The notes below the pieces were generated by a model. It had not been told where the DNA came from. It saw nothing but the letters and a program-made list of their open reading frames with translations, and did no database searches. A DNA stretch of 64,000 nucleotides from Candidatus Aminicenantaceae bacterium (GTDB lineage: Bacteria; Acidobacteriota; Aminicenantia; Aminicenantales; Aminicenantaceae): the NCBI GenBank assembly GCA_036446295.1, contig JAZFSR010000121.1, forward strand, positions 4,427 through 68,426. Reading direction: 5' to 3'. The position numbers and the translations under genes were made by a program. Below are positions 15,461 to 27,137 of this stretch, piece after piece; the first letter of the stretch is position 1; every line of letters begins with the position of its first letter.

Positions 15461-15535
15461 TGGTAGGCGCGGAGGGTATCGAACCCTCGACTTCTTCCGC
15501 GTCAGGGAAGCACTCTACCACTGAGCTACGCGCCT
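15461..15535 (-). tRNA. tRNA-Val (anticodon GAC), CCA encoded
   Basis: Reverse-complement folds as a cloverleaf: acceptor AGGCGCG/CGCGCCU, D-arm GCUC…GAGU, anticodon stem CUUCC/GGAAG with loop CUGACGC, T-arm GAGGG-UUCGAUA-CCCUC. Confidence 0.85.
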
Positions 15536-17200: not shown

Positions 17201-17343
17201 GAATTATTCATAAAAACTGCCTCCACCATCATTTCTCTCCAATGATATCAACTTTATAGCATGATTTTAGTAAGATCTCGAACATTTCTTTGTTTGTTGG
17301 CTAGTTTATACTAAATGTCGGCATTTTTTACCCCAAGGGGGCT
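17201..17343 (-). promoter_or_regulatory. Conserved 143-nt upstream leader (repeat B copy 1) with embedded sigma70-like promoter TTGGGG-17-TAGTAT
   Basis: About 75% identical to 31954-32096, in the same position relative to a different minus-strand gene. Read on the minus strand the putative -35/-10 are at 17331-17336 and 17308-17313. Confidence 0.5.
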
Positions 17344-17443
17344 GAGATGCGCCCCTCCATTGAAAAATTGGCAGGGGTATATTATACTAACAATTCCATT
17401 TTGGAACTTATATGCTTATAAAAAAACAAATAACGGAGTTTTA

Positions 17444-18751
17444 ATGAAAAAGAATGTCATCATCATGGGCGCCGCAGGAAGGGACTTTCATAACTTCAAC
17501 ACCTTCTTGAGAGACAACCAAAACTATCAGGTCGTTGCGTTCACGGCCACACAAATTCCGGACATAGATGGCCGGAAATATCCCGCCGAACTGGCGGGCC
17601 GGTTGTACCCGGAGGGAATCCCTATTTTCTCTGAAGATGACCTGACTAAGCTGATCAAATCCATGGAAGTCACAGAAGTCTTTTTTTCCTACAGTGATAC
17701 ATCCAATGACTATGTCATGCATAAGTCCGCCGATGTTATGGCCGCCGGAGCCAGTTTCACACTCCTCGGCCCCAGAGAGACGATGATAGCCAGCCGTAAG
17801 CCACTGATCTCTGTCTGCGCAGTGCGAACGGGAGTCGGCAAAAGCCAGACCAGCCGTAAAATTGCTCTGATGCTCAAGAACAAAGGCCATCGGGTTGTAG
17901 TCATCCGGCATCCCATGCCCTATGGGGATCTGGTCAAACAAAAAGTCCAGCGCTTTGCCAATTACGACGACATGATCAAACACAAATGCACGATCGAAGA
18001 GATGGAGGAGTACGAACCCCATATCAGCAACGGCATCATCGTCTATGCCGGGGTGGACTACGGCGCCATCCTGGAAGAAGCCGAAAAGGAAGCCGATATC
18101 ATCCTCTGGGACGGCGGAAACAATGACTACCCGTTTTACAGGGCGAATCTGGAAATCGTCCTCATCGACCCCCACCGCCCGGGACACGAACTTCAGTATT
18201 ACCCTGGAGAAGTGAATTTCAAAAGAGCACAGGTCCTCATCATCAACAAGATGGATACGGCCGAGCAAGGCAACATCGACCGCGTTGTCGAAAATATTAA
18301 GAGGTACAATCCCGAAGCCACAATCATCAGGGCCAATTCCCCCATCAGTGTTCCGGACGGCAAAGACATCGAGGGAAAGACCGTCCTGGTCGTTGAAGAC
18401 GGCCCAACTCTGACACACGGAGGCATGGCTTTCGGAGCCGGCATTGTGGCGGCCAAAAAATATGGTGCCGGCCGCATCGTCGATCCACGCCCCTATGCTT
18501 TAGGAAGCATTAAAAAGACATTTGAAAAATATACGCACCTCGACCGCGTCCTCCCGGCCATGGGATATGGACAGGAACAAATCGACGAACTCACCGAAAC
18601 CATCAACCGCACCGAATGTGACCTCGTTATCGGAGCGACCCCTATCGATCTGAGCCGCCTGATCCAAACTAACAAAAGAATTCTCCGCGTCTCTTACGAT
18701 TTGGAAGAAATCGGGTCTCCCAACCTTCAGGAGGTCCTCAAGGATTTCTGA
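17444..18751 (+). CDS. P-loop NTPase resembling cyclic 2,3-diphosphoglycerate synthetase (CPGS) family
   Basis: 436 aa from the MKKNVIIMGAAG Met. Walker A-like CAVRTGVGKSQTS; size and layout are consistent with the CPGS family. The assignment is from memory of the family, not a search. Confidence 0.55.
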   Translation: MKKNVIIMGAAGRDFHNFNTFLRDNQNYQVVAFTATQIPDIDGRKYPAELAGRLYPEGIPIFSEDDLTKLIKSMEVTEVFFSYSDTSNDYVMHKSADVMAAGASFTLLGPRETMIASRKPLISVCAVRTGVGKSQTSRKIALMLKNKGHRVVVIRHPMPYGDLVKQKVQRFANYDDMIKHKCTIEEMEEYEPHISNGIIVYAGVDYGAILEEAEKEADIILWDGGNNDYPFYRANLEIVLIDPHRPGHELQYYPGEVNFKRAQVLIINKMDTAEQGNIDRVVENIKRYNPEATIIRANSPISVPDGKDIEGKTVLVVEDGPTLTHGGMAFGAGIVAAKKYGAGRIVDPRPYALGSIKKTFEKYTHLDRVLPAMGYGQEQIDELTETINRTECDLVIGATPIDLSRLIQTNKRILRVSYDLEEIGSPNLQEVLKDF

Positions 18752-19701
18752 TGAAACGCAAGATCGCCCTCATAGCTTTTGGAGGAAACGCACTCCTTCC
18801 CAAGCCAAAACAAGGACTCCAAGGCGAGCAGATCAAACTTGCCGAAAAGGCCGCCCGTTTGATGATTCATGTCGTGCAGAGAGGATATGACCTCATCATC
18901 GTTCACGGCAACGGGCCCCAGGTCGGAAATCTGCTCATCCAGATGGAGGAATCCATCAATAAGGTTCCCCCTTTCTCTCTCGACATCTGCAATGCGATGA
19001 CCGAGGGAAGCATAGGATTTATGCTGGAGAAAGCCGTCATCAACGAACTCCGTAAAAAATCGGTGGATAAGGAGGTGGCCACCCTGATCACTCAGGTTAT
19101 TGTAGATAAGGAAGATCCGGCCTTCATGGCCCCGTCCAAACCCGTCGGCCCCTTCTACTCGAAATACCGGGCCAAGATGCTCATGCGGGAAAAAAAATGG
19201 ATTATGAAGGAAGATGCAGGAAGGGGTTTCCGGAAAGTCGTGCCATCCCCCAGGCCGATTGACATCGTTCCCAAACACGTAATGAGCGAACTCGTCGGCT
19301 CGGGAAAGATCGTCATCGCCGGCGGAGGAGGAGGCATTCCGGTCATCATCAACGGCAAGGGACTCTTCCAGGGAGTCGAAGCGGTCATCGACAAGGATTA
19401 TACATCCGGCCTCATCGCTCGAGAGACTCGAACCGATCTCTTCATCATCCTAACCACTGTCCCTCAGGTGTATCTGAATTTCGGCACACCAAAGGAAAAG
19501 CCCATCCTTGAGATGACTGTGGACGAGGCCAAAGAACAACTGGCCATGGGACAGTTTCCTCGGGGATCCATGGGTCCAAAAATAGAAGCCGCCGTCGACT
19601 ACATCGAAAGAGGAGGAAAAGAAGTCCTGATCACCTCCGTCAGCCACTTGAAGGCGGCCATGATAAACCGGTCAGGCACACGAATTACAGGTTCGAACTA
19701 G
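18751..19701 (+). CDS. arcC: Carbamate kinase
   Basis: 316 aa, MKRKIALIAFGGNALL…HGNGPQVGNLL…, the amino-acid kinase fold typical of carbamate kinase. Confidence 0.9.
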   Translation: MKRKIALIAFGGNALLPKPKQGLQGEQIKLAEKAARLMIHVVQRGYDLIIVHGNGPQVGNLLIQMEESINKVPPFSLDICNAMTEGSIGFMLEKAVINELRKKSVDKEVATLITQVIVDKEDPAFMAPSKPVGPFYSKYRAKMLMREKKWIMKEDAGRGFRKVVPSPRPIDIVPKHVMSELVGSGKIVIAGGGGGIPVIINGKGLFQGVEAVIDKDYTSGLIARETRTDLFIILTTVPQVYLNFGTPKEKPILEMTVDEAKEQLAMGQFPRGSMGPKIEAAVDYIERGGKEVLITSVSHLKAAMINRSGTRITGSN

Positions 19702-19709
19702 GAGAAAAG

Positions 19710-20630
19710 ATGGATAACTTTCTTTCAATTCATGATTTGAGCATTTATGAATTCCATGAACTGTTGGACCTTTCCAGTCAAGTTAAAGCTCAACCACAGC
19801 GCTATAGAGAAAAGCTATCGAATACGGTTTTGGCCATGATTTTCGAAAAACCGTCTCTTCGGACACGAATGACCTTTCAAGTCGGCATGCTCCAACTGGG
19901 CGGCCAGGCCATTTATCTCGGCCCCCTTGATATCCGGATGGGCCAGAGAGAAAGCACGTACGACATAGGAAAAAACCTCGAACGATGGATCGATTTAATC
20001 ATGATCCGCACATTTGATCATCAGATCGCCAAGGATCTGGCCAAATACACACGTGTTCCGGTCATCAACGCCTTGACCGATTCCCTGCATCCCTGTCAGG
20101 GGATGGCCGACTTTCTGACTATCAGGGAAAAGCATTATGATCTGACCGACCTTTGCCTCGCCTACGTCGGAGACGGGAACAATGTCTGTCACAGCCTGCT
20201 CTTTGCGGCAGCCAAAGCAGGATCTCAGATGAAGGTGGCCACTCCTCCAGGATACGAACCCGATCCCGACATTGTCAAACAGGCCGAGGAGGACGGAAAG
20301 GACACAGGCTTCAGCGTCGAGGTCTATAATGATCCGGCTGAGGCAGTTCAGGGAGCCCATGCCGTCTATACCGACACCTGGACATCGATGGGACAGGAAG
20401 ACGAAAAAAAAGAACGACTCCGGATCTTTGCACCCTTCCAAGTCAACAAAGATCTGATGGCCAAGGCTCACCCCAAAGCGATATTCATGCACTGTCTTCC
20501 CGCACACAGAGGCGAAGAAGTCACAGATGAGGTTATCGACTCGACTCAATCGGTTGTTTTCGATCAGGCCGAAAACAGGCTTCATTTCCAAAAAGCCATT
20601 ATGTTATTATTAATGGGGATAAAAAAATAG
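19710..20630 (+). CDS. argF: Ornithine carbamoyltransferase
   Basis: 306 aa with S-L-R-T-R carbamoyl-P motif, HPCQ and HCLP motifs of OTCase. Confidence 0.88.
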   Translation: MDNFLSIHDLSIYEFHELLDLSSQVKAQPQRYREKLSNTVLAMIFEKPSLRTRMTFQVGMLQLGGQAIYLGPLDIRMGQRESTYDIGKNLERWIDLIMIRTFDHQIAKDLAKYTRVPVINALTDSLHPCQGMADFLTIREKHYDLTDLCLAYVGDGNNVCHSLLFAAAKAGSQMKVATPPGYEPDPDIVKQAEEDGKDTGFSVEVYNDPAEAVQGAHAVYTDTWTSMGQEDEKKERLRIFAPFQVNKDLMAKAHPKAIFMHCLPAHRGEEVTDEVIDSTQSVVFDQAENRLHFQKAIMLLLMGIKK

Positions 20631-20632
20631 AA

Positions 20633-22831
20633 ATGGACCAAGAAAACGAAATTACGCAAATTAACAACGACGATCTTTCCTTTTTAGAAAAGGAACTGGC
20701 CAAAACCAAAACCCCTGTCGTACAGGAAGAACTGGTCACTAAAACCGCCTTCAAAAAGACTGCAATCCAGCGGTGCCTGGAAGCCAAAAAATACAATTCC
20801 GATTGTTTGTATGAAATCGGCGACCTCGTGTTTAAGGAATATGATGAACCGCTGACCATCAGCTCTAAAGGTACCGAACACTTTAAAGGTTCCGTGGTGC
20901 TTAAGGTAGTCAACAAATTTTCTCTTCCTGATTTCAACTGTGAAATGCTGGAAGTGGATTACTTGGGTGGGGGAGTATTCCGGAAGCATATCGACTACAT
21001 GAAAAAAACTCGTACGCAGGTTCTCCTTCCGAGCAACTGCGACGGAAAGGCTCTCTCTCCAAAAATATTACAGAAAGACGAAGACCCTCGGTTAAACGAA
21101 CTTCCCATGACAGATAAAGACCTGAGGAAACTGGAGAAAAATCTCAAATCGGCACTTTTAAAATCCGATAAATTTTTTAACTGGAATGAATTCTGGCAGC
21201 TGGAAGCAAACCGGATCGCTATTACAGACAAAGAGATTAAAAAAATTGAAAAAAAATTTATGGAGACCCCCCTCTCCACGGCCACGACAGATTTGATCCT
21301 TCAACTCTTTGATATCGATAAAAAAAATGAGCTGTTTGCCATTCACGCCCTCAGTCTCAATTTTGTTCTGGAAAAGAACTACAAGAAAAAATTCGTCTAT
21401 ATTTCTCCGGAAGATTGGGGGAAATGGTTCTCCAAGGAGACTCTCGATTCGTTTCTGGCCAATCTTCCCATCACAAAATCCAAGGCCAAGGTTCCACGTC
21501 TGGATGAAACCAGTCATGAATCCCTCTCTAATGCCCCGGAAATGCCATTAAAAGTCTATCTAACATGGAGAGAAGTTCTCTCCGGCTGCATTAAAATCCC
21601 CAAGAGTATGAACCGGCATTTTTCAAAGTCCAGAGAATACATCTTTACGGATTCAGACAGCGGCAAAGACTATGTCGTCTACTACTACCCCTCATCCAAT
21701 ATCTTTTATGGGCTGCAGGAATTCTACGAAAAAAACAATGTTCCCCAGGGAGCCAGTCTCACTATCGAGAAAAAGGACCTCACTTCATGCCATTTCAGCT
21801 TGAAAAAGTCAAAAAAGAAGCTCGAAGTACCCCACCTCACATATGACCCTAAAAAGGATGAGATCATGGACACCGGGGAAGAGGCATTCACTTTTTCCCT
21901 TCCTAACAAGATCATCTTTTTGGAACGTGAAACTCTGACCACTCTCTTGACTCTTTACAGACAGCGGAAAAATGTTGACCTTAAAGACCTGCTCATCCTC
22001 ATCTTTAAAAATTTTGGATTGGAAGGGCAGGCCCTCACTATCCACTATCAACGCGCTTTTCATCTTGTCGATTTTATCAAACGCACCACTATCGAAGATG
22101 TGGAGAATGTTCTTCTCAACTCTCCTGAATTTACACAATCGGAAAAGAGCAAGGGTCTTTTTCTCTATCCGCTTGAACTAGAAGAAGTATCCCCGGATGA
22201 GACAGGGGTGGAAGAACATATAGAAAAGCCCGTTGACGAAAAGATCGCCGCCATGGTCGAAGAAATAGAGGAAGAGATTCTCCCTGAAATCGGGACTGTC
22301 GGCGAGGTAGCCATCCCAGAAGGATCCAAGATTGTCGAAGTCATCGAGCCCGAAAAACCGGCTCCCGTCAAAGTTAAACCTCCCCCAGTAAAGCCTGACC
22401 GACCTCTACGCCGTAAAAAAGCTGTCGACATTGTAACCCCAGAAGAAAAAGTCCCCTTAGAGCCTTCTAAAAAAGAAAAACCGGCCAAAAAGAAAAAGGC
22501 CCGATTGAAGGAAGAGCAGGAAAGAGTTCCACGACGCAGACGCGGAGGGAAACGCTTCATCGAAGAACGGATCGAACTGGAAGAATCGGAACACGAAGCC
22601 CTGATCGCCCGCAAAGCAGAAGAATCGGAACAGGAAAGCATCATCCTGCCTGAGAAACCCAAAAAAGACGAAGCAAAAGAAATGGGCAAGAAAGAAGAAC
22701 TTGCGGAGTATGTCTCCGAAACCCCGGCGTCGTCTCTCTTTGCCGACAAACTCAAGTCAGCCCTGGGGAAGACACCGCCCAAAGCTTCTGACAAAGGGAA
22801 AAAATCTAAAAAAAGAAGAAAACAAACCTGA
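20633..22831 (+). CDS. Hypothetical protein, 732 aa, with extremely K/E/R-rich C-terminal ~200 aa
   Basis: Uninterrupted ORF starting 2 nt after the argF stop. No family recognised. The tail reads …KPAKKKKARLKEEQERVPRRRRGGKRF…KGKKSKKRRKQT. Visibly A-rich codon usage. Confidence 0.7.
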   Translation: MDQENEITQINNDDLSFLEKELAKTKTPVVQEELVTKTAFKKTAIQRCLEAKKYNSDCLYEIGDLVFKEYDEPLTISSKGTEHFKGSVVLKVVNKFSLPDFNCEMLEVDYLGGGVFRKHIDYMKKTRTQVLLPSNCDGKALSPKILQKDEDPRLNELPMTDKDLRKLEKNLKSALLKSDKFFNWNEFWQLEANRIAITDKEIKKIEKKFMETPLSTATTDLILQLFDIDKKNELFAIHALSLNFVLEKNYKKKFVYISPEDWGKWFSKETLDSFLANLPITKSKAKVPRLDETSHESLSNAPEMPLKVYLTWREVLSGCIKIPKSMNRHFSKSREYIFTDSDSGKDYVVYYYPSSNIFYGLQEFYEKNNVPQGASLTIEKKDLTSCHFSLKKSKKKLEVPHLTYDPKKDEIMDTGEEAFTFSLPNKIIFLERETLTTLLTLYRQRKNVDLKDLLILIFKNFGLEGQALTIHYQRAFHLVDFIKRTTIEDVENVLLNSPEFTQSEKSKGLFLYPLELEEVSPDETGVEEHIEKPVDEKIAAMVEEIEEEILPEIGTVGEVAIPEGSKIVEVIEPEKPAPVKVKPPPVKPDRPLRRKKAVDIVTPEEKVPLEPSKKEKPAKKKKARLKEEQERVPRRRRGGKRFIEERIELEESEHEALIARKAEESEQESIILPEKPKKDEAKEMGKKEELAEYVSETPASSLFADKLKSALGKTPPKASDKGKKSKKRRKQT

Positions 22832-22853
22832 GACCGAAAAATCGGTCGCCCGA

Positions 22854-24008
22854 ATGAGCACTTGGCAAAAAACAGCTGATGTCGCCATCCTCGGAGGAGG
22901 CATCCTCGGCGTAAGCGCCGCATTTTTTCTTTCGCGCCATAAGCCGTTCCGGATCGTGCTGCTTGAAAAAGATGGCCTCGCCCAGGCCACGACCGGATTG
23001 AGCGTCGGAGGCATTCGGCAGCAGTTTTCTCATCCCTCAAATATTCTCCTTTCCCAAAACACTCTCGCTTTTTTTGATTTTTTCCAGAAGGAATACGGCA
23101 TCCCTCTAAGCTTCCACAAGGTAGGTTATCTCTTTCTCGCCCAAAAGGAGGACACTTGGAAAGATTTTCTCTCGAGTGTCCGGACCCAGAAGCGATACAA
23201 TGTCCCCGTAGAGGCACTTCTTCCTGGCGAAATCCAGCGGCGGTGGCCCTATCTGAATGTTGCGGATCTCAAAGGAGGCACATTCTGCCCGGAGGACGGC
23301 TATGCAGATCCCTACGAAGTAACGATGGCCATGGCAAATATCGCACGGCAGAAGGGGGTAGACATCTTTGAACAGACGGAAGTGACGGGAGTTCTTGTGG
23401 ACCGGGGAAAGGTGAGCGGCGTGCAAACAAGCCGGGGTGATCTTTCCGTTCCCATTGTAATCAATGCAGCCGGGCCGTGGAGCGGAAACATAGGGCGGAT
23501 GGCCGGGTTGAACTATCCCGTTTTTCCCTTCAGGCGCCAGGTGTTTGTAACCAAGGCGTTTCAAGAGTTAGCTAAACCCATCCCCTTTATTTTGGATTTT
23601 GATTCCCTCTTTTATTTTCGGGAGGAGGGACCGGCTATCCTCATGGGAAAAAGTGATCCGGAGGAACCTTCAAGCTTCAACATCCATGTGGACAGGGGGT
23701 TCATGGAAACCGTCATAGAGGCGGCATGCCATAGAGTCCCCGTTCTCGGCAGCGCGGAAATTGCGAAGGGCTGGGGAGGGCTGTACACCATTACGCCAGA
23801 TGGAAATCCGATCATCGGAGCCGACCCCAACGTCAAAGGATTCTACAATGCCATCGGATTTTCAGGGCATGGATTCCAGCACGGCCCTGCCGTCGGACAG
23901 ATTCTCTCCGATCTCATAGTACACGGCTCTACAGCCTTGGATATGACCCCATTCTTTTCAGAACGATTCACTCAAGGACCACTTCTTGGGGAAAAACGTG
24001 TTGTGTAA
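22854..24008 (+). CDS. FAD-dependent oxidoreductase (DAO/sarcosine-oxidase-beta-like)
   Basis: N-terminal dinucleotide fold ADVAILGGGILGVSAAFFL and C-terminal DAO-family region. The internal Met at 22854 was chosen; the ORF-track start would overlap the upstream gene. Confidence 0.8.
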   Translation: MSTWQKTADVAILGGGILGVSAAFFLSRHKPFRIVLLEKDGLAQATTGLSVGGIRQQFSHPSNILLSQNTLAFFDFFQKEYGIPLSFHKVGYLFLAQKEDTWKDFLSSVRTQKRYNVPVEALLPGEIQRRWPYLNVADLKGGTFCPEDGYADPYEVTMAMANIARQKGVDIFEQTEVTGVLVDRGKVSGVQTSRGDLSVPIVINAAGPWSGNIGRMAGLNYPVFPFRRQVFVTKAFQELAKPIPFILDFDSLFYFREEGPAILMGKSDPEEPSSFNIHVDRGFMETVIEAACHRVPVLGSAEIAKGWGGLYTITPDGNPIIGADPNVKGFYNAIGFSGHGFQHGPAVGQILSDLIVHGSTALDMTPFFSERFTQGPLLGEKRVV

Positions 24009-24022
24009 GGAGGACCATACTT

Positions 24023-25015
24023 GTGAAGATAAAAATCCTTAATCAAGAAAACGTCATGGAGGCCATCACTATCAAGGAGGCCATATCGGCTGTGAAGGAT
24101 GCCTTTATCCAGCTTTCCGCACAGGAAGCGGTTGTGCCGATGCGAAGCCAGATCCAGGTAGCCAAAGACAAAGGGATCTCCCTCTTTATGCCGGCTTATC
24201 TGGAAAAAAGCCATTCTCTCGGGGCTAAAATCGTCTCTGTGTTTCCAGACAATACCTCTAAGAACCTGCCCACCATTTTTGCTGTGGTTATCGTTCTGGA
24301 TGCCGATACCGGCCGTCCCCGGGCCATTCTGGACGGCACTTTTTTGACGGCACTGCGCACGGGGGCGGCATCTGGGGTAGCGACAGATTTGCTTGCGAAA
24401 AAAGACGCTTCGACAGCCGCTGTCTTTGGCGCAGGAATACAAGGCCGGACTCAAATGGAGGCCGTATGTACAGTCAGATCCATAGACAAAATTTGGATCT
24501 ATGATCCCCGTGCCTCTGCGGCGGACGCATATGTCCGAGATTTAAAAGAAAAGGGCCCCCCTTTTCCACAGGACATATCCGTTGCCTCCTCCCCAGAACA
24601 GGCGGCTGGCCAAGCCGATATCATCTGTACGGCCACAACCTCTTCCGTACCTGTTTTTAACGATAACCATATCAAACCGGGCGTCCACATCAACGGCGTC
24701 GGCTCTTACACTCCGGAAATGCAGGAGATTCCTTCAGCAACCGTAGTGAGGGCTAAAGTGTTTGTAGATTCTGTATCCTCCAGCTGGGAAGAGGCCGGAG
24801 ATCTGATTATTCCCCTTCAAAAGGGGCTCATCGACAAAGCCCATGTCCGCGGAGAGATCGGAGAACTGGCGTTGGGACAAATTCGGGGAAGGGACAAGGA
24901 GGATGACATCACGTTCTTTAAATCCGTAGGCGTGGCCGTGCAGGATATTTCTGTTGCACAAGTCATTCTCCAAACCGCCGAAAAGCTCGGATTGGGACTG
25001 GATGTCGACTTATAA
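24023..25015 (+). CDS. Ornithine cyclodeaminase/mu-crystallin family protein (candidate Pyr2C reductase or OCD)
   Basis: 330 aa with a Rossmann region GAGIQGRTQ and the OCD/mu-crystallin pattern throughout. Confidence 0.85.
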   Translation: MKIKILNQENVMEAITIKEAISAVKDAFIQLSAQEAVVPMRSQIQVAKDKGISLFMPAYLEKSHSLGAKIVSVFPDNTSKNLPTIFAVVIVLDADTGRPRAILDGTFLTALRTGAASGVATDLLAKKDASTAAVFGAGIQGRTQMEAVCTVRSIDKIWIYDPRASAADAYVRDLKEKGPPFPQDISVASSPEQAAGQADIICTATTSSVPVFNDNHIKPGVHINGVGSYTPEMQEIPSATVVRAKVFVDSVSSSWEEAGDLIIPLQKGLIDKAHVRGEIGELALGQIRGRDKEDDITFFKSVGVAVQDISVAQVILQTAEKLGLGLDVDL

Positions 25016-25029
25016 AAAGGAGGCACAGT

Positions 25030-26058
25030 ATGACTCAAACTTGGGAACCCCCTTCAGACTGGCTGCGGATTACAGCTATAGATGCACACACTGCCGGTGA
25101 ACCACTGCGGATCATCACCGGCGGATTTCCCCCCATCCCCGGGACAACGATTCTGGCCAAACGGCGGTACGTCCGGGAACACTTTGACCATCTGCGGAAA
25201 GCCCTCATGTGGGAACCACGAGGGCATGCCGATATGTACGGCTGTCTCCTCCTTGAACCCACAACTGAAGACGGAACCCTGAGCGTACTTTTTCTCCACA
25301 ATCTGGGCTACAGTTCCATGTGCGGTCACGGTATCATCGGCCTGTCCACCGTGGTTATGGAGACCGGTCTTTTCCATGTGGACAAAACTCAACCCAAGCT
25401 CCTTATCGACTCGCCCGCGGGGAGGATTACGGCGCGGGTTCATTGGGACAAAAACCGCATCCGGAGTACGACTTTCCAGAATGTCCCCTCATTTGTCCAT
25501 TCTCTCGATCAAACAATCACGGTCCCGGGTATTGGGGATGTCCGCTATGACATCGCATATGGAGGAGCTTATTATGCATTTGTAAAGGCGGAAGATTTTG
25601 GATTCAACCTTGTCCCTGATGAGTTTTCCACCCTTGTCGAAACCGGAAGACGCATCAAAAAGGCCGTTAAAAATCAAGTGGACATCCGGCATCCTTTTGA
25701 AGAAGATCTAGGCTTCCTCTACGGGACAATATTTGTCGGTCCCCCTCACGACAAGGCTCATCACAGCCGGAATGTGTGTGTTTTTGCCGATGGTGAAGTC
25801 GACCGGAGCCCGACGGGAACCGGAGTCAGTGCACGGGCCGCCCTTCATTTTGCCCGGAACGACATCACAGAGGGTGAGCCTTTTGTTATCGAAAGCCTTC
25901 TGGGAACATGTTTTACAGGACGTGTGGTCAACACCACGTCTTTTGGCAGCTATCCTGCCATTATCCCTGAAGTAACGGGGAGCGCTTTCATCGTGGGGCG
26001 CAGCGAATGGCTCATCGATCCCAATGACCCCCTCCGCCACGGTTTTTTCCTCCGCTAG
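25030..26058 (+). CDS. Proline racemase family protein, Cys/Thr type (predicted trans-3-hydroxy-L-proline dehydratase-like)
   Basis: 342 aa. First catalytic motif SMCGHG retains Cys. The second motif reads DRSPTGTG, so the second catalytic Cys is replaced by Thr. Confidence 0.85.
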   Translation: MTQTWEPPSDWLRITAIDAHTAGEPLRIITGGFPPIPGTTILAKRRYVREHFDHLRKALMWEPRGHADMYGCLLLEPTTEDGTLSVLFLHNLGYSSMCGHGIIGLSTVVMETGLFHVDKTQPKLLIDSPAGRITARVHWDKNRIRSTTFQNVPSFVHSLDQTITVPGIGDVRYDIAYGGAYYAFVKAEDFGFNLVPDEFSTLVETGRRIKKAVKNQVDIRHPFEEDLGFLYGTIFVGPPHDKAHHSRNVCVFADGEVDRSPTGTGVSARAALHFARNDITEGEPFVIESLLGTCFTGRVVNTTSFGSYPAIIPEVTGSAFIVGRSEWLIDPNDPLRHGFFLR

Positions 26059-27137
26059 AGGATCTCGCGTGTGGGACCTCTGCGCCGGGTGACTTTCATC
26101 TGGTCGAGAAGCTCGAGGAGAGGAATGGCGTACTTCCGGGAAAGGCCGGTCATCTCTTTGAATTGGCCAACAGTCAGCTCTTTTCCTTCTAGATTCCGGA
26201 TTTTGGCCACCAGCTCCTCCAGCCACTGAGAATGAAGGATAAATCCGTCTTCCCCCTGGACAATCTTTCTCCTTTCGGCCAGAAGAGAGAGAAGGTTTTG
26301 CAGCCGATGGGCGGAAAGATTGAAGCGTTTCTGGAAGTCTTCCATAGGGACAGAATGAAGCTTCCCCTCAAGACACATCTCTTCCAGCCTGTCAACGAGG
26401 CCTTCCTCCTCTGACGTCAGAGCCAGTTCAAAATCCATCACCGACAACCGTTTTTCGACCTCTTTAATTTGTTTCTCACGAATAAGATGTTTTAACGCGA
26501 GAAACCAGATTCGATCGGGGAGATCAAACTTCTGCTTCACTTCATTATTCAATACGCCCGGCTCATCCGGATGGGTCTCATGATAGCGCCGTATGAACTG
26601 GGTAATTTTCTCTTTGAGGAACTCAAAACTTGCATGAGAAAGCAAAAAAAGCGGGGAAAACGAGAGGATCCGGATCTGTCCTTCAGCTTCCAGCTTCTGA
26701 CAGAGAGGAAGCAGCGTTTTCCTTGTGATAGGAGCAAACTCCAGGATCTCTTTTTCCCTCAAACCCATAATTCCCTTATCCCGGGCGAGAACGGCTAACA
26801 TTCCGATCTTATCACCCCTGAGCTGGGGGAGAAGATTCGCCCTCTTTTTCGCGTCCTTCCCTATCAGTTTTTGATCGGCGGGATAGAGGACTTTTCCTGA
26901 ACCCAACACCTTCTCCGATCCCGGACTCAGGACATCAAAGGAATAGCTCCATTTAACAGTCACCGGTTTTGAGAGGGATACGGAAATGAATGAATCTTTC
27001 AAATCGTGGATACCGGTCTCATAGAAAGAAAATGAGCCCGGCACTTTTTCTTTTTTCAGCACAAATGTGGCATCGTGTGCATGGGCCTTCTTGGGCAAAA
27101 CAATATCGACAACCGCATCAAAAATAGAAGTTTTCAT
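26055..27137 (-). CDS. SelB C-terminal (winged-helix SECIS-binding) domain protein lacking the GTPase domain
   Basis: 360 aa. The C-terminus …GQFKEMTGLSRKYAIPLLELLDQMKVTRRRGPTREIL matches the terminal winged helix of SelB. Only 30 nt separate it from rnr upstream, so there is no room for EF-Tu-like domains I/II. Confidence 0.7.
   Translation of the reverse strand: MKTSIFDAVVDIVLPKKAHAHDATFVLKKEKVPGSFSFYETGIHDLKDSFISVSLSKPVTVKWSYSFDVLSPGSEKVLGSGKVLYPADQKLIGKDAKKRANLLPQLRGDKIGMLAVLARDKGIMGLREKEILEFAPITRKTLLPLCQKLEAEGQIRILSFSPLFLLSHASFEFLKEKITQFIRRYHETHPDEPGVLNNEVKQKFDLPDRIWFLALKHLIREKQIKEVEKRLSVMDFELALTSEEEGLVDRLEEMCLEGKLHSVPMEDFQKRFNLSAHRLQNLLSLLAERRKIVQGEDGFILHSQWLEELVAKIRNLEGKELTVGQFKEMTGLSRKYAIPLLELLDQMKVTRRRGPTREIL

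Follow-up and report, generated by a model that had tools for sequence, protein, structure and literature searches.

A lineage-specific protein family of the Aminicenantes with a predicted B3-type pseudobarrel and a charged disordered tail, encoded with an arcE-like gene

Several bacterial proteins, Chlamydia Hc1, mycobacterial HupB and Pseudomonas AlgP among them, have lysine-rich tails like that of histone H1, and in the RNA polymerase delta subunit RpoE and other HARE-HTH proteins a winged-helix N-terminal module leads into a long disordered tail with many charges. Another point of comparison is the B3 pseudobarrel of plant transcription factors, whose bacterial counterparts are documented in restriction enzymes (EcoRII-N, BfiI-C, LlaJI.R1) (PMC3973309). 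The protein considered here, X, invites comparison with each of these, and its gene keeps company with what is probably that of the recently discovered arginine synthetase ArcE. It is encoded at 20633-22831 (+) of a 64,000-nucleotide stretch of DNA from a Candidatus Aminicenantaceae bacterium (contig JAZFSR010000121.1, positions 4,427 to 68,426), the whole of which is called the window below. In X, known folds of DNA-binding type make up part of an architecture that is new. The explanation that we favour, at a probability of roughly 0.45, is that it acts as a lineage-specific DNA-binding factor, associated with transcription or with the nucleoid, and is expressed with an arginine-fermentation operon.

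A conserved family of one lineage

Is a 732-aa protein in which a first-pass annotation recognised no family, and which it called an orphan, a genuine gene product? An orphan it is not: a word-indexed search of 5.8 billion proteins yielded at least 906 homologues at E<=1e-3, and an exhaustive HMMER search of 1.84 billion 50%-identity representatives yielded 133 representative clusters matching the X profile at E<=1e-3, of which 62 reached E<=1e-30. Since there are only 133 profile matches among so many representatives, the family is a tight one. Relatives are encoded in 112 genomes among the GTDB species representatives, three of which are complete chromosomes, and every informatively labelled genome among the 112 is Aminicenantes, Aminicenantales or Acidobacteriota. 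Few homologues are named, and those are 'hypothetical protein' of Candidatus Aminicenantes or Aminicenantaceae. Other labels can mislead: many metagenome-assembled genomes with the Aminicenantes-specific operon are entered as 'uncultured Eubacteriales bacterium' (binchicken co-assemblies, e.g. L005 and L007), one as 'Clostridiales bacterium' (L034) and one as 'Candidatus Desulfaltia sp.' (L022), all probably placeholders or wrong taxonomy.

The gene boundaries stand as first described. The stop of argF ends at 20630, leaving a 2-nt gap to the ATG of X, and from the X stop (TGA, 22829-22831) it is 22 nt to the ATG at 22854 of the gene for an FAD oxidoreductase; orthologues share the N-terminus MD(K/Q)ENE. 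The best 120 homologues are 46-99% identical to X (BLAST identity over the best local segment) and 687-756 aa long, apart from a single 443-aa fragment, and none holds a Pfam domain. Mean column identity is 64% over the full-length alignment of 33 sequences and 71% over residues 1-300 (19 sequences). Among 80 Aminicenantes loci fetched for comparison of context and intactness, the ORF (open reading frame) is intact in all 77 that have both its ends on the contig (578-748 aa, median 692), so that in-frame disruption in relatives was not seen. That no family is recognisable was borne out: neither the whole protein nor a 33-member profile corresponds to a curated family in Pfam, NCBIfam, PADLOC or the PDB sequences, no catalytic family was detected with Pfam or NCBIfam, and no earlier description of the family was found in the searchable literature. 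X is a genuine, native and strongly conserved gene, essentially confined to the Aminicenantes lineage and inherited vertically within it; it represents an unstudied family, neither an orphan nor a foreign insert.

The suspicion of foreign origin had arisen from composition, and the observation behind it is sound. The DNA is A-rich and distinct from its flanks, with GC 0.42-0.44 over the N-terminal part of X against 0.51-0.53 (about 0.52) in the flanks and an AT skew reaching its maximum, 0.44, over the 3' part that encodes the tail; GC at third codon positions, 0.495, is 1.7 standard deviations under the window value of 0.555 +/- 0.035. On this evidence X could have come in recently from a foreign source, or have been an ORF that is spurious or without function and merely made by A-rich sequence. 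However, that third-position value is within the range of the window (minimum 0.467), and when the synonymous codon choice of each gene is scored against the 40 remaining long ORFs of the window, X comes to 0.071, at the window mean of 0.076 +/- 0.029. The deficit lies in codon positions 1 and 2 (GC 0.475 and 0.290 in the N-terminal part) and therefore reflects a protein rich in K, E and N, the whole of X being 13.5% K and 12% E. Because synonymous codon use is native and the same operon slot is occupied lineage-wide, recent foreign origin is ruled out; together with the intact orthologues and a confidently predicted fold, to be described, this leaves the foreign or spurious reading effectively refuted.

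A by-product of the composition is the antisense ORF of 350 aa, rich in serine, at 22165-23217 (-). The opposite strand of the tail lacks stops because the coding strand is made of purine-rich GAA, AAA and AAG codons, and the length that stays open on the antisense strand differs widely among relatives, from 106 to 752 codons, being at least 200 in 36 of 77. As the first-pass annotation had supposed, it is a compositional by-product, and its candidacy as a gene was rejected.

Predicted folds of the globular part

An AlphaFold2 model of X, made with the 33-sequence alignment, is confident over residues 10-500 (pLDDT, the per-residue confidence, mostly 75-93), in keeping with the early impression that the first ~520 residues are globular; values fall under 50 at residues 282-300, 502-638, 671-707 and 710-732. 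A second model, of residues 1-300, has a mean pLDDT of 86.7. When the full model was compared with the PDB by Foldseek, the best-supported matches were B3 DNA-binding pseudobarrels, several of them solved with DNA. The top B3 entries are 1yel, 7et6, 4i1k, 6j9c, 5yzy and 6j9b, joined by the N-domain of LlaJI.R1 (6c5d); the proteins named are At1g16640, TEM1, LEC2, VAL1 and FUS3 (as B3-DNA complexes), VRN1 and ARFs, and, among restriction enzymes, BfiI and the DNA-recognition domain of LlaJI.R1. Ranks 1-8 are without exception B3 domains or LlaJI.R1-N (probability 1.00, E 2e-3 to 4e-2), a second LlaJI.R1 chain stands at rank 14 (probability 0.99), and E across the cited B3 and LlaJI matches runs from 2e-3 to 0.17; TM(target) is 0.48-0.71 over 98-105 aligned columns.

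The region concerned, residues ~303-425 (21539-21907, +), is modelled at pLDDT ~80-90 as a seven-stranded pseudobarrel with two helices. Sub-threshold Pfam B3 matches occur in eight of the 33 family members, at 13-15 bits (best E 0.0019), spanning model positions 10-98 of 101 and X residues ~314-392, the same residues as those picked out by Foldseek. X itself has no Pfam B3 match at E<=1, and none of the 33 members reaches the gathering score of PF02362, 30.1 bits. On the model, then, residues ~303-425 are B3-like at the fold level, not a Pfam B3 member, and homology of X to a characterised family goes no further than the fold of this one domain. Conserved basic residues in the region are R313, K324, K391, K394 and K396, the last three invariant in a basic loop, LKKSKKKL, and included in a stretch, residues 361-400, of net charge +3. 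As a lead only, the sequence L-T-W-R-E-[IV]-L-S-G-x-I-K-I-P-K...F resembles what we take to be the N-arm signature of B3 domains.

The predicted fold is thus that of the B3 pseudobarrels of plant transcription factors and of EcoRII-N, BfiI-C and LlaJI.R1-N, but the setting is another one: the domain sits within a bacterial protein of 700 aa that is not a nuclease, in the company of winged-helix-like modules and of a long tail predicted to be disordered. Unlike the genes of restriction-modification systems or of eukaryotic transcription factors, that of X has a fixed chromosomal place within a metabolic operon.

What surrounds the B3-like domain is less easily named. The N-terminal helical module, residues 10-50 (20660-20782, +), is winged-helix-like, with helices at 12-23, 31-42 and 44-48, a short strand after the first of them, and pLDDT 85-96. 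It is followed by a small beta-barrel, residues 51-135 (20783-21037, +), SH3/Tudor-like by the topology of the AlphaFold2 model, in which D64, K68, Y70, E72, G86, E107, G112, G114, F116 and R117 are invariant. Between domains comes a linear motif, EDPRL-x-ELPMTDKD, residues 149-165 (21077-21127, +), with D151, P152, R153, P158, M159, T160 and D163 invariant in the 33 sequences. A second winged-helix-like module, residues 161-276 (21113-21460, +), has helices at 199-211, 218-226 and 235-249 and a hairpin of strands 254-258 and 264-267, and after the B3-like region a domain of four or five helices, residues 430-501 (21920-22135, +), carries the conserved LH-x-LRAFHLVD-x-LK. Residues 1-300 have no significant fold neighbour in the PDB, and the same goes for the small beta-barrel; winged-helix-like topology is seen at residues 12-53 and 199-267, with only weak PDB resemblances (SelB, ESCRT-II, MecI, SaeR and ScpB; E>=0.2, probability <=0.41). 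HARE-HTH (PF05066) was tried for these modules and rejected, as no match was present in the 33 members at E<=0.1 and hhalign to the corresponding segment of a distant protein, P0245, gave 0.8%. The likeness of X to RpoE and other HARE-HTH proteins is one of plan, a winged-helix-type N-terminus and then a charged disordered tail; X differs in lacking a PF05066 match across the family, in being four times longer and in having a B3-type domain.

Where else do these modules occur? Proteins that have parts of X in common with it were among the weakest matches of the exhaustive HMMER search. P0245 shares domains 1-2 of X (hhalign 92.3%), has counterparts of the N-terminal and of the second winged-helix-like module, and carries a true HARE-HTH. 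P0247, of 868 aa, aligns to the second winged-helix-like module and the B3 region (profile 195-409, hhalign 94.9%), has sigma-70 regions 2 and 4 at its end and is similar to MzaA of PADLOC, and P0250 is an N6 DNA methylase of the Anaerolineae that carries the B3/helical part of X. P0247 and P0250 lack the charged tail, and X has neither the sigma-70 regions nor the methyltransferase domain. That parts of X are found again joined to machinery directed at DNA is the chief indirect support for a DNA-binding role, and the set hints at a larger, so far undescribed repertoire of DNA-sensing modules in conflict systems. Sub-modules of X also turn up in a protein of 928 aa that itself shows Tubulin_2 and HSP70-like matches (the distant matches include P0172 and P0232), and a 1192-aa protein has four stretches matched to the B3/helical region.

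With an MzaA-like protein and a type I/II-like methylase among the distant proteins that share its modules, and with the bacterial B3-like domains already known coming from restriction enzymes (PMC3973309), X could be a defence-derived DNA sensor still active in anti-phage or restriction-like immunity, its effector or nuclease being encoded elsewhere. We hold this very unlikely. PADLOC matches X to none of its families (0), and the nuclease or NTPase domain that goes with B3-type restriction enzymes (EcoRII, BfiI, LlaJI, NgoAVII) was sought in X with Pfam, NCBIfam and PADLOC and not found. No nuclease, ATPase or methylase domain is present in X or adjoining it, the neighbours among the loci being arcE, arcC, argF, DAO, OCD (ornithine cyclodeaminase) or YjeF/TsaE. 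A fixed metabolic or housekeeping operon slot in 112 species, with native codons, could hardly be further from a mobile defence island.

The disordered tail

Residues 502-732 (22136-22828, +) make up a polyampholyte tail predicted to be disordered, by its pLDDT (mostly <50), its charge profile and its many alignment indels. The description as low complexity, rich in charge and proline, was apt (the last 212 residues are 17% K, 19% E, 6.6% R and 10% P), but 'almost pure' overstated the case, for the tail has invariant positions and two motifs that are kept down to 27% identity. 'Polybasic' was half true: K+R comes to 23.6% in the window protein but is balanced by D+E at 22.6%, and the family medians are 23% and 25%. 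The charges alternate in blocks, acidic at 521-560 (net -12), basic at 561-640 (net +13) and acidic at 641-680 (net -7), and the tail finishes with a polybasic end at 721-732 (net +8).

The first of the two motifs is an acidic helix in the AlphaFold2 model, residues 639-671 (22547-22645, +; ...KRFIEERIELEESEHEALIARKA...), with E644, E645, I647, E650, E651, E655, A656, A659 and K661 invariant in the 33 sequences and still visible as I-x-x-x-I-E-L-E-E in relatives at 27-31% identity. The second, near the C-terminus, is amphipathic, G/S-[ILVA]-F-A-x-K-L-x-x-x-L, residues 701-713 (22733-22771, +), with F703, L707, A710 and L711 invariant, a predicted helix at 702-710 and a K/R-rich end after it. 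All tailed distant relatives (27-31%) have it, as Y-x-[DS]...G-[IVA]-F-A-x-K-L and then a K-rich end; its median distance from the C-terminus is 22 residues, and the stretch after it is 50% K+R. A membrane-targeting helix at this site remains speculation, the hydrophobic moment being only moderate (0.36-0.48, rank 55 of 214 tail windows). The idea that an RRRR stretch of the tail is a peptidyl-arginine substrate of ArcE was dropped, as divergent relatives do not keep the run of arginines.

The comparison with histone H1 made at the outset did not survive. X shares with Hc1, HupB and AlgP a long, low-complexity, K-rich disordered C-terminus on a body of nucleic-acid-binding type, but its tail has alternating acidic and basic blocks and two conserved helical motifs instead of a PAKK/KAAK-type repeat, and X has no HU domain. 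No linker-histone or Hc1 domain was found with Pfam in the X family, its 33 members included, and with K+R and D+E in balance an H1-like or Hc1-like nucleoid protein is not supported. Nucleic-acid binding, which had been suggested from the tail, is plausible, but the grounds for it lie mainly in the B3-type pseudobarrel of the globular part.

The arc operon and the place of X in it

In the window the order is promoter, ArcE-like gene, carbamate kinase, ornithine carbamoyltransferase, X, a DAO-type FAD oxidoreductase, ornithine cyclodeaminase and a proline-racemase-like gene. The promoter, at 17360-17388 (+), reads TTGAAA-17 nt-TATACT, with the -35 at 17360 and the -10 at 17383-17388, and the family consensus TTG[AC]AT-N17-TGTATTATACT is kept in 32-38 of 46 loci versus about 5 in shuffles. 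Ornithine carbamoyltransferase is directly upstream of X in 71 of 73 informative loci. Five divergent tailed relatives of X at 27-31% identity (L086 and L091-L094, one labelled Candidatus Aminicenantes) have otherwise different flanks, and yet in all five an arcE orthologue (61-65% identity) precedes X, with nothing or carbamate kinase between; the gaps upstream of X are -23, 2, 2, 122 and 175 nt. In that clade X overlaps or abuts a downstream pair, YjeF (NAD(P)HX repair) and TsaE, the order being arcE-(arcC)-X-yjeF-tsaE. The two most distant relatives (22-25% identity) have no charged tail and another globular C-terminus, and do not adjoin arcE. The arcE family comprises at least 8000 clusters against the 133 of X; with its far smaller family and no catalytic family detected, X is not a generic enzyme of the pathway.

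The gene that opens the operon, at 17444-18751 (+), encodes an arginine synthetase/cDPG-synthase-like 'predicted GTPase'. It has no Pfam, NCBIfam or PDB match, and the names in use for its relatives are 'predicted GTPase' and 'cyclic 2,3-diphosphoglycerate synthase'; ArcE has the same annotation history, clusters with arcC/arcB and is present in Acidobacteria (PMC11032458). From the names of homologues and the clustering with arcC and argF we infer that it is ArcE. The mechanical ORF call, 17315-18751 (+), 478 aa, is over-extended. As homologues are 434-436 aa long and the conserved promoter lies inside the extension, the real start is the ATG at 17444 (MKKNVIIMGAAGRDFHNF...). Next come arcC, the carbamate kinase gene, at 18751-19701 (+) (TIGR00746, 359.4 bits against a cutoff of 358.25), and argF/arcB at 19710-20630 (+), which ends 2 nt before X.

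Beyond X, the DAO-type oxidoreductase, ornithine cyclodeaminase and proline-racemase-like genes (22854-26058, +) are variable and outside the conserved core. DAO/OCD is found downstream of X in only ~19 of 68 loci, and this part of the operon is an accessory extension. The longest-ORF call for DAO, 22701-24008 (+), has a TTG start at 22701, which gives it a 131-nt overlap with X; the ATG at 22854 is more plausible, for in the version beginning there the Pfam DAO match sets in from residue 9. Taken whole, 17360-26058 (+), arcE-arcC-argF-X-DAO-OCD-ProRac, reads as a route from arginine through citrulline and ornithine to proline. Convergent to it, at 26055-27137 (-), lies the gene for a 360-aa protein made of SelB-type winged-helix domains only (wing_2, wing_3), with no GTPase domain; it has this position in most Aminicenantes loci and is absent from the loci of the divergent relatives. 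A tRNA gene, 15464-15535 (-), is the sole Rfam match in the 64-kb window.

What does the persistence of arcE beside X signify? One answer is that X is a partner at the protein level, scaffolding, localising or regulating ArcE and carbamate kinase, for instance through the tail helices, with the 'DNA-binding' folds repurposed for protein or RNA. It would suit the fact that arcE is the most persistent neighbour whatever intervenes, be it nothing, carbamate kinase or that and ornithine carbamoyltransferase together, as also the overlap or 2-nt gap in three of the five divergent lineages and the short conserved motifs in a disordered tail, which are typical of protein-interaction motifs. However, ArcE acts alone in vitro and in organisms without X (PMC11032458; family sizes), X evolves much faster than ArcE (27-31% versus 61-65% identity at the same divergence), and modules of X are found elsewhere in fusion with sigma-70 and DNA-methylase domains, all of which makes such a partnership improbable to our minds.

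A second answer keeps DNA binding and narrows its purpose: X would be a dedicated arginine- or citrulline-responsive repressor or activator of arcE-arcC-argF, a functional analogue of ArgR/ArcR, its B3 and winged-helix domains contacting operators at the arcE promoter. The strict adjacency to arcE, which holds throughout the lineage, and the DNA-binding-type domains of X would fit, and arc operons commonly have a regulator of their own. One cited as having a regulator is arcRACB (PMC11032458). We think a local role of this kind unlikely, if worth keeping in view. X has no ArgR (Arg_repressor) or Crp/Fnr domains by Pfam or NCBIfam; a local regulator would not typically be a five-domain protein of ~730 aa that ends in 230 disordered residues; and the gene comes late or last behind a near-consensus promoter, implying high dosage. 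Nor did k-mer footprinting of the 46 arcE upstream regions find a conserved operator, palindrome or repeat at the operon promoter, where only the -35 and the extended -10 are conserved.

That last result tells also against the broader reading that we prefer, X as a DNA-binding transcription- or nucleoid-associated factor, and it is not alone in doing so. Domains 1, 2 and 4 of X are without a significant structural match, the B3 likeness is at fold level only (13-15 against 30.1 bits, and a Foldseek E of 2e-3 at best), and the globular part is about charge-neutral overall. The lasting adjacency of arcE might reflect a direct link to the enzyme at the protein level and not a role on DNA, and inherited synteny may contribute to it, all tailed relatives coming from one candidate phylum. 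DNA binding by X, the role of the tail and any regulatory output are put forward with these points in mind.

How might such a factor work? The B3-type pseudobarrel would recognise DNA, probably helped by the two winged-helix-like modules, and the basic blocks of the polyampholyte tail could add non-specific, charge-driven affinity, while the two conserved tail helices (I-x-x-x-I-E-L-E-E and G-[IV]-F-A-x-K-L) may provide partner binding or self-regulation. Transcription of X would start from the conserved near-consensus promoter, with X near or at the end of an arcE-arcC-(argF) operon, and its dosage would in that way track ATP-yielding arginine fermentation. A bolder version, to which we give little credence for now, is that X is the first non-restriction bacterial B3 protein and a phylum-specific, chromatin-like or transcription-coupling factor, tied directly to the energy-conserving ArcE pathway in its abundance and perhaps, by way of the two tail helices, in its activity as well, binding ArcE or carbamate kinase, or converting the flux of arginine fermentation into a global change of DNA packaging or transcription.

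Should X prove to be an ordinary local regulator, the value of these observations would be mainly in annotation, as a new family definition with domain boundaries. The wider bearing is of two kinds. A predicted pseudobarrel of a type previously known from plants and from bacterial restriction enzymes is placed in a conserved chromosomal bacterial protein that is not a nuclease. And for the Aminicenantes, abundant uncultured bacteria of sediments and the subsurface, a near-universal unannotated protein of 700 aa is a real gap in the reading of their genomes; genetically tied as it is to what is probably the recently discovered arcE, X is a testable candidate for a link between amino-acid fermentation and regulation at the level of DNA.

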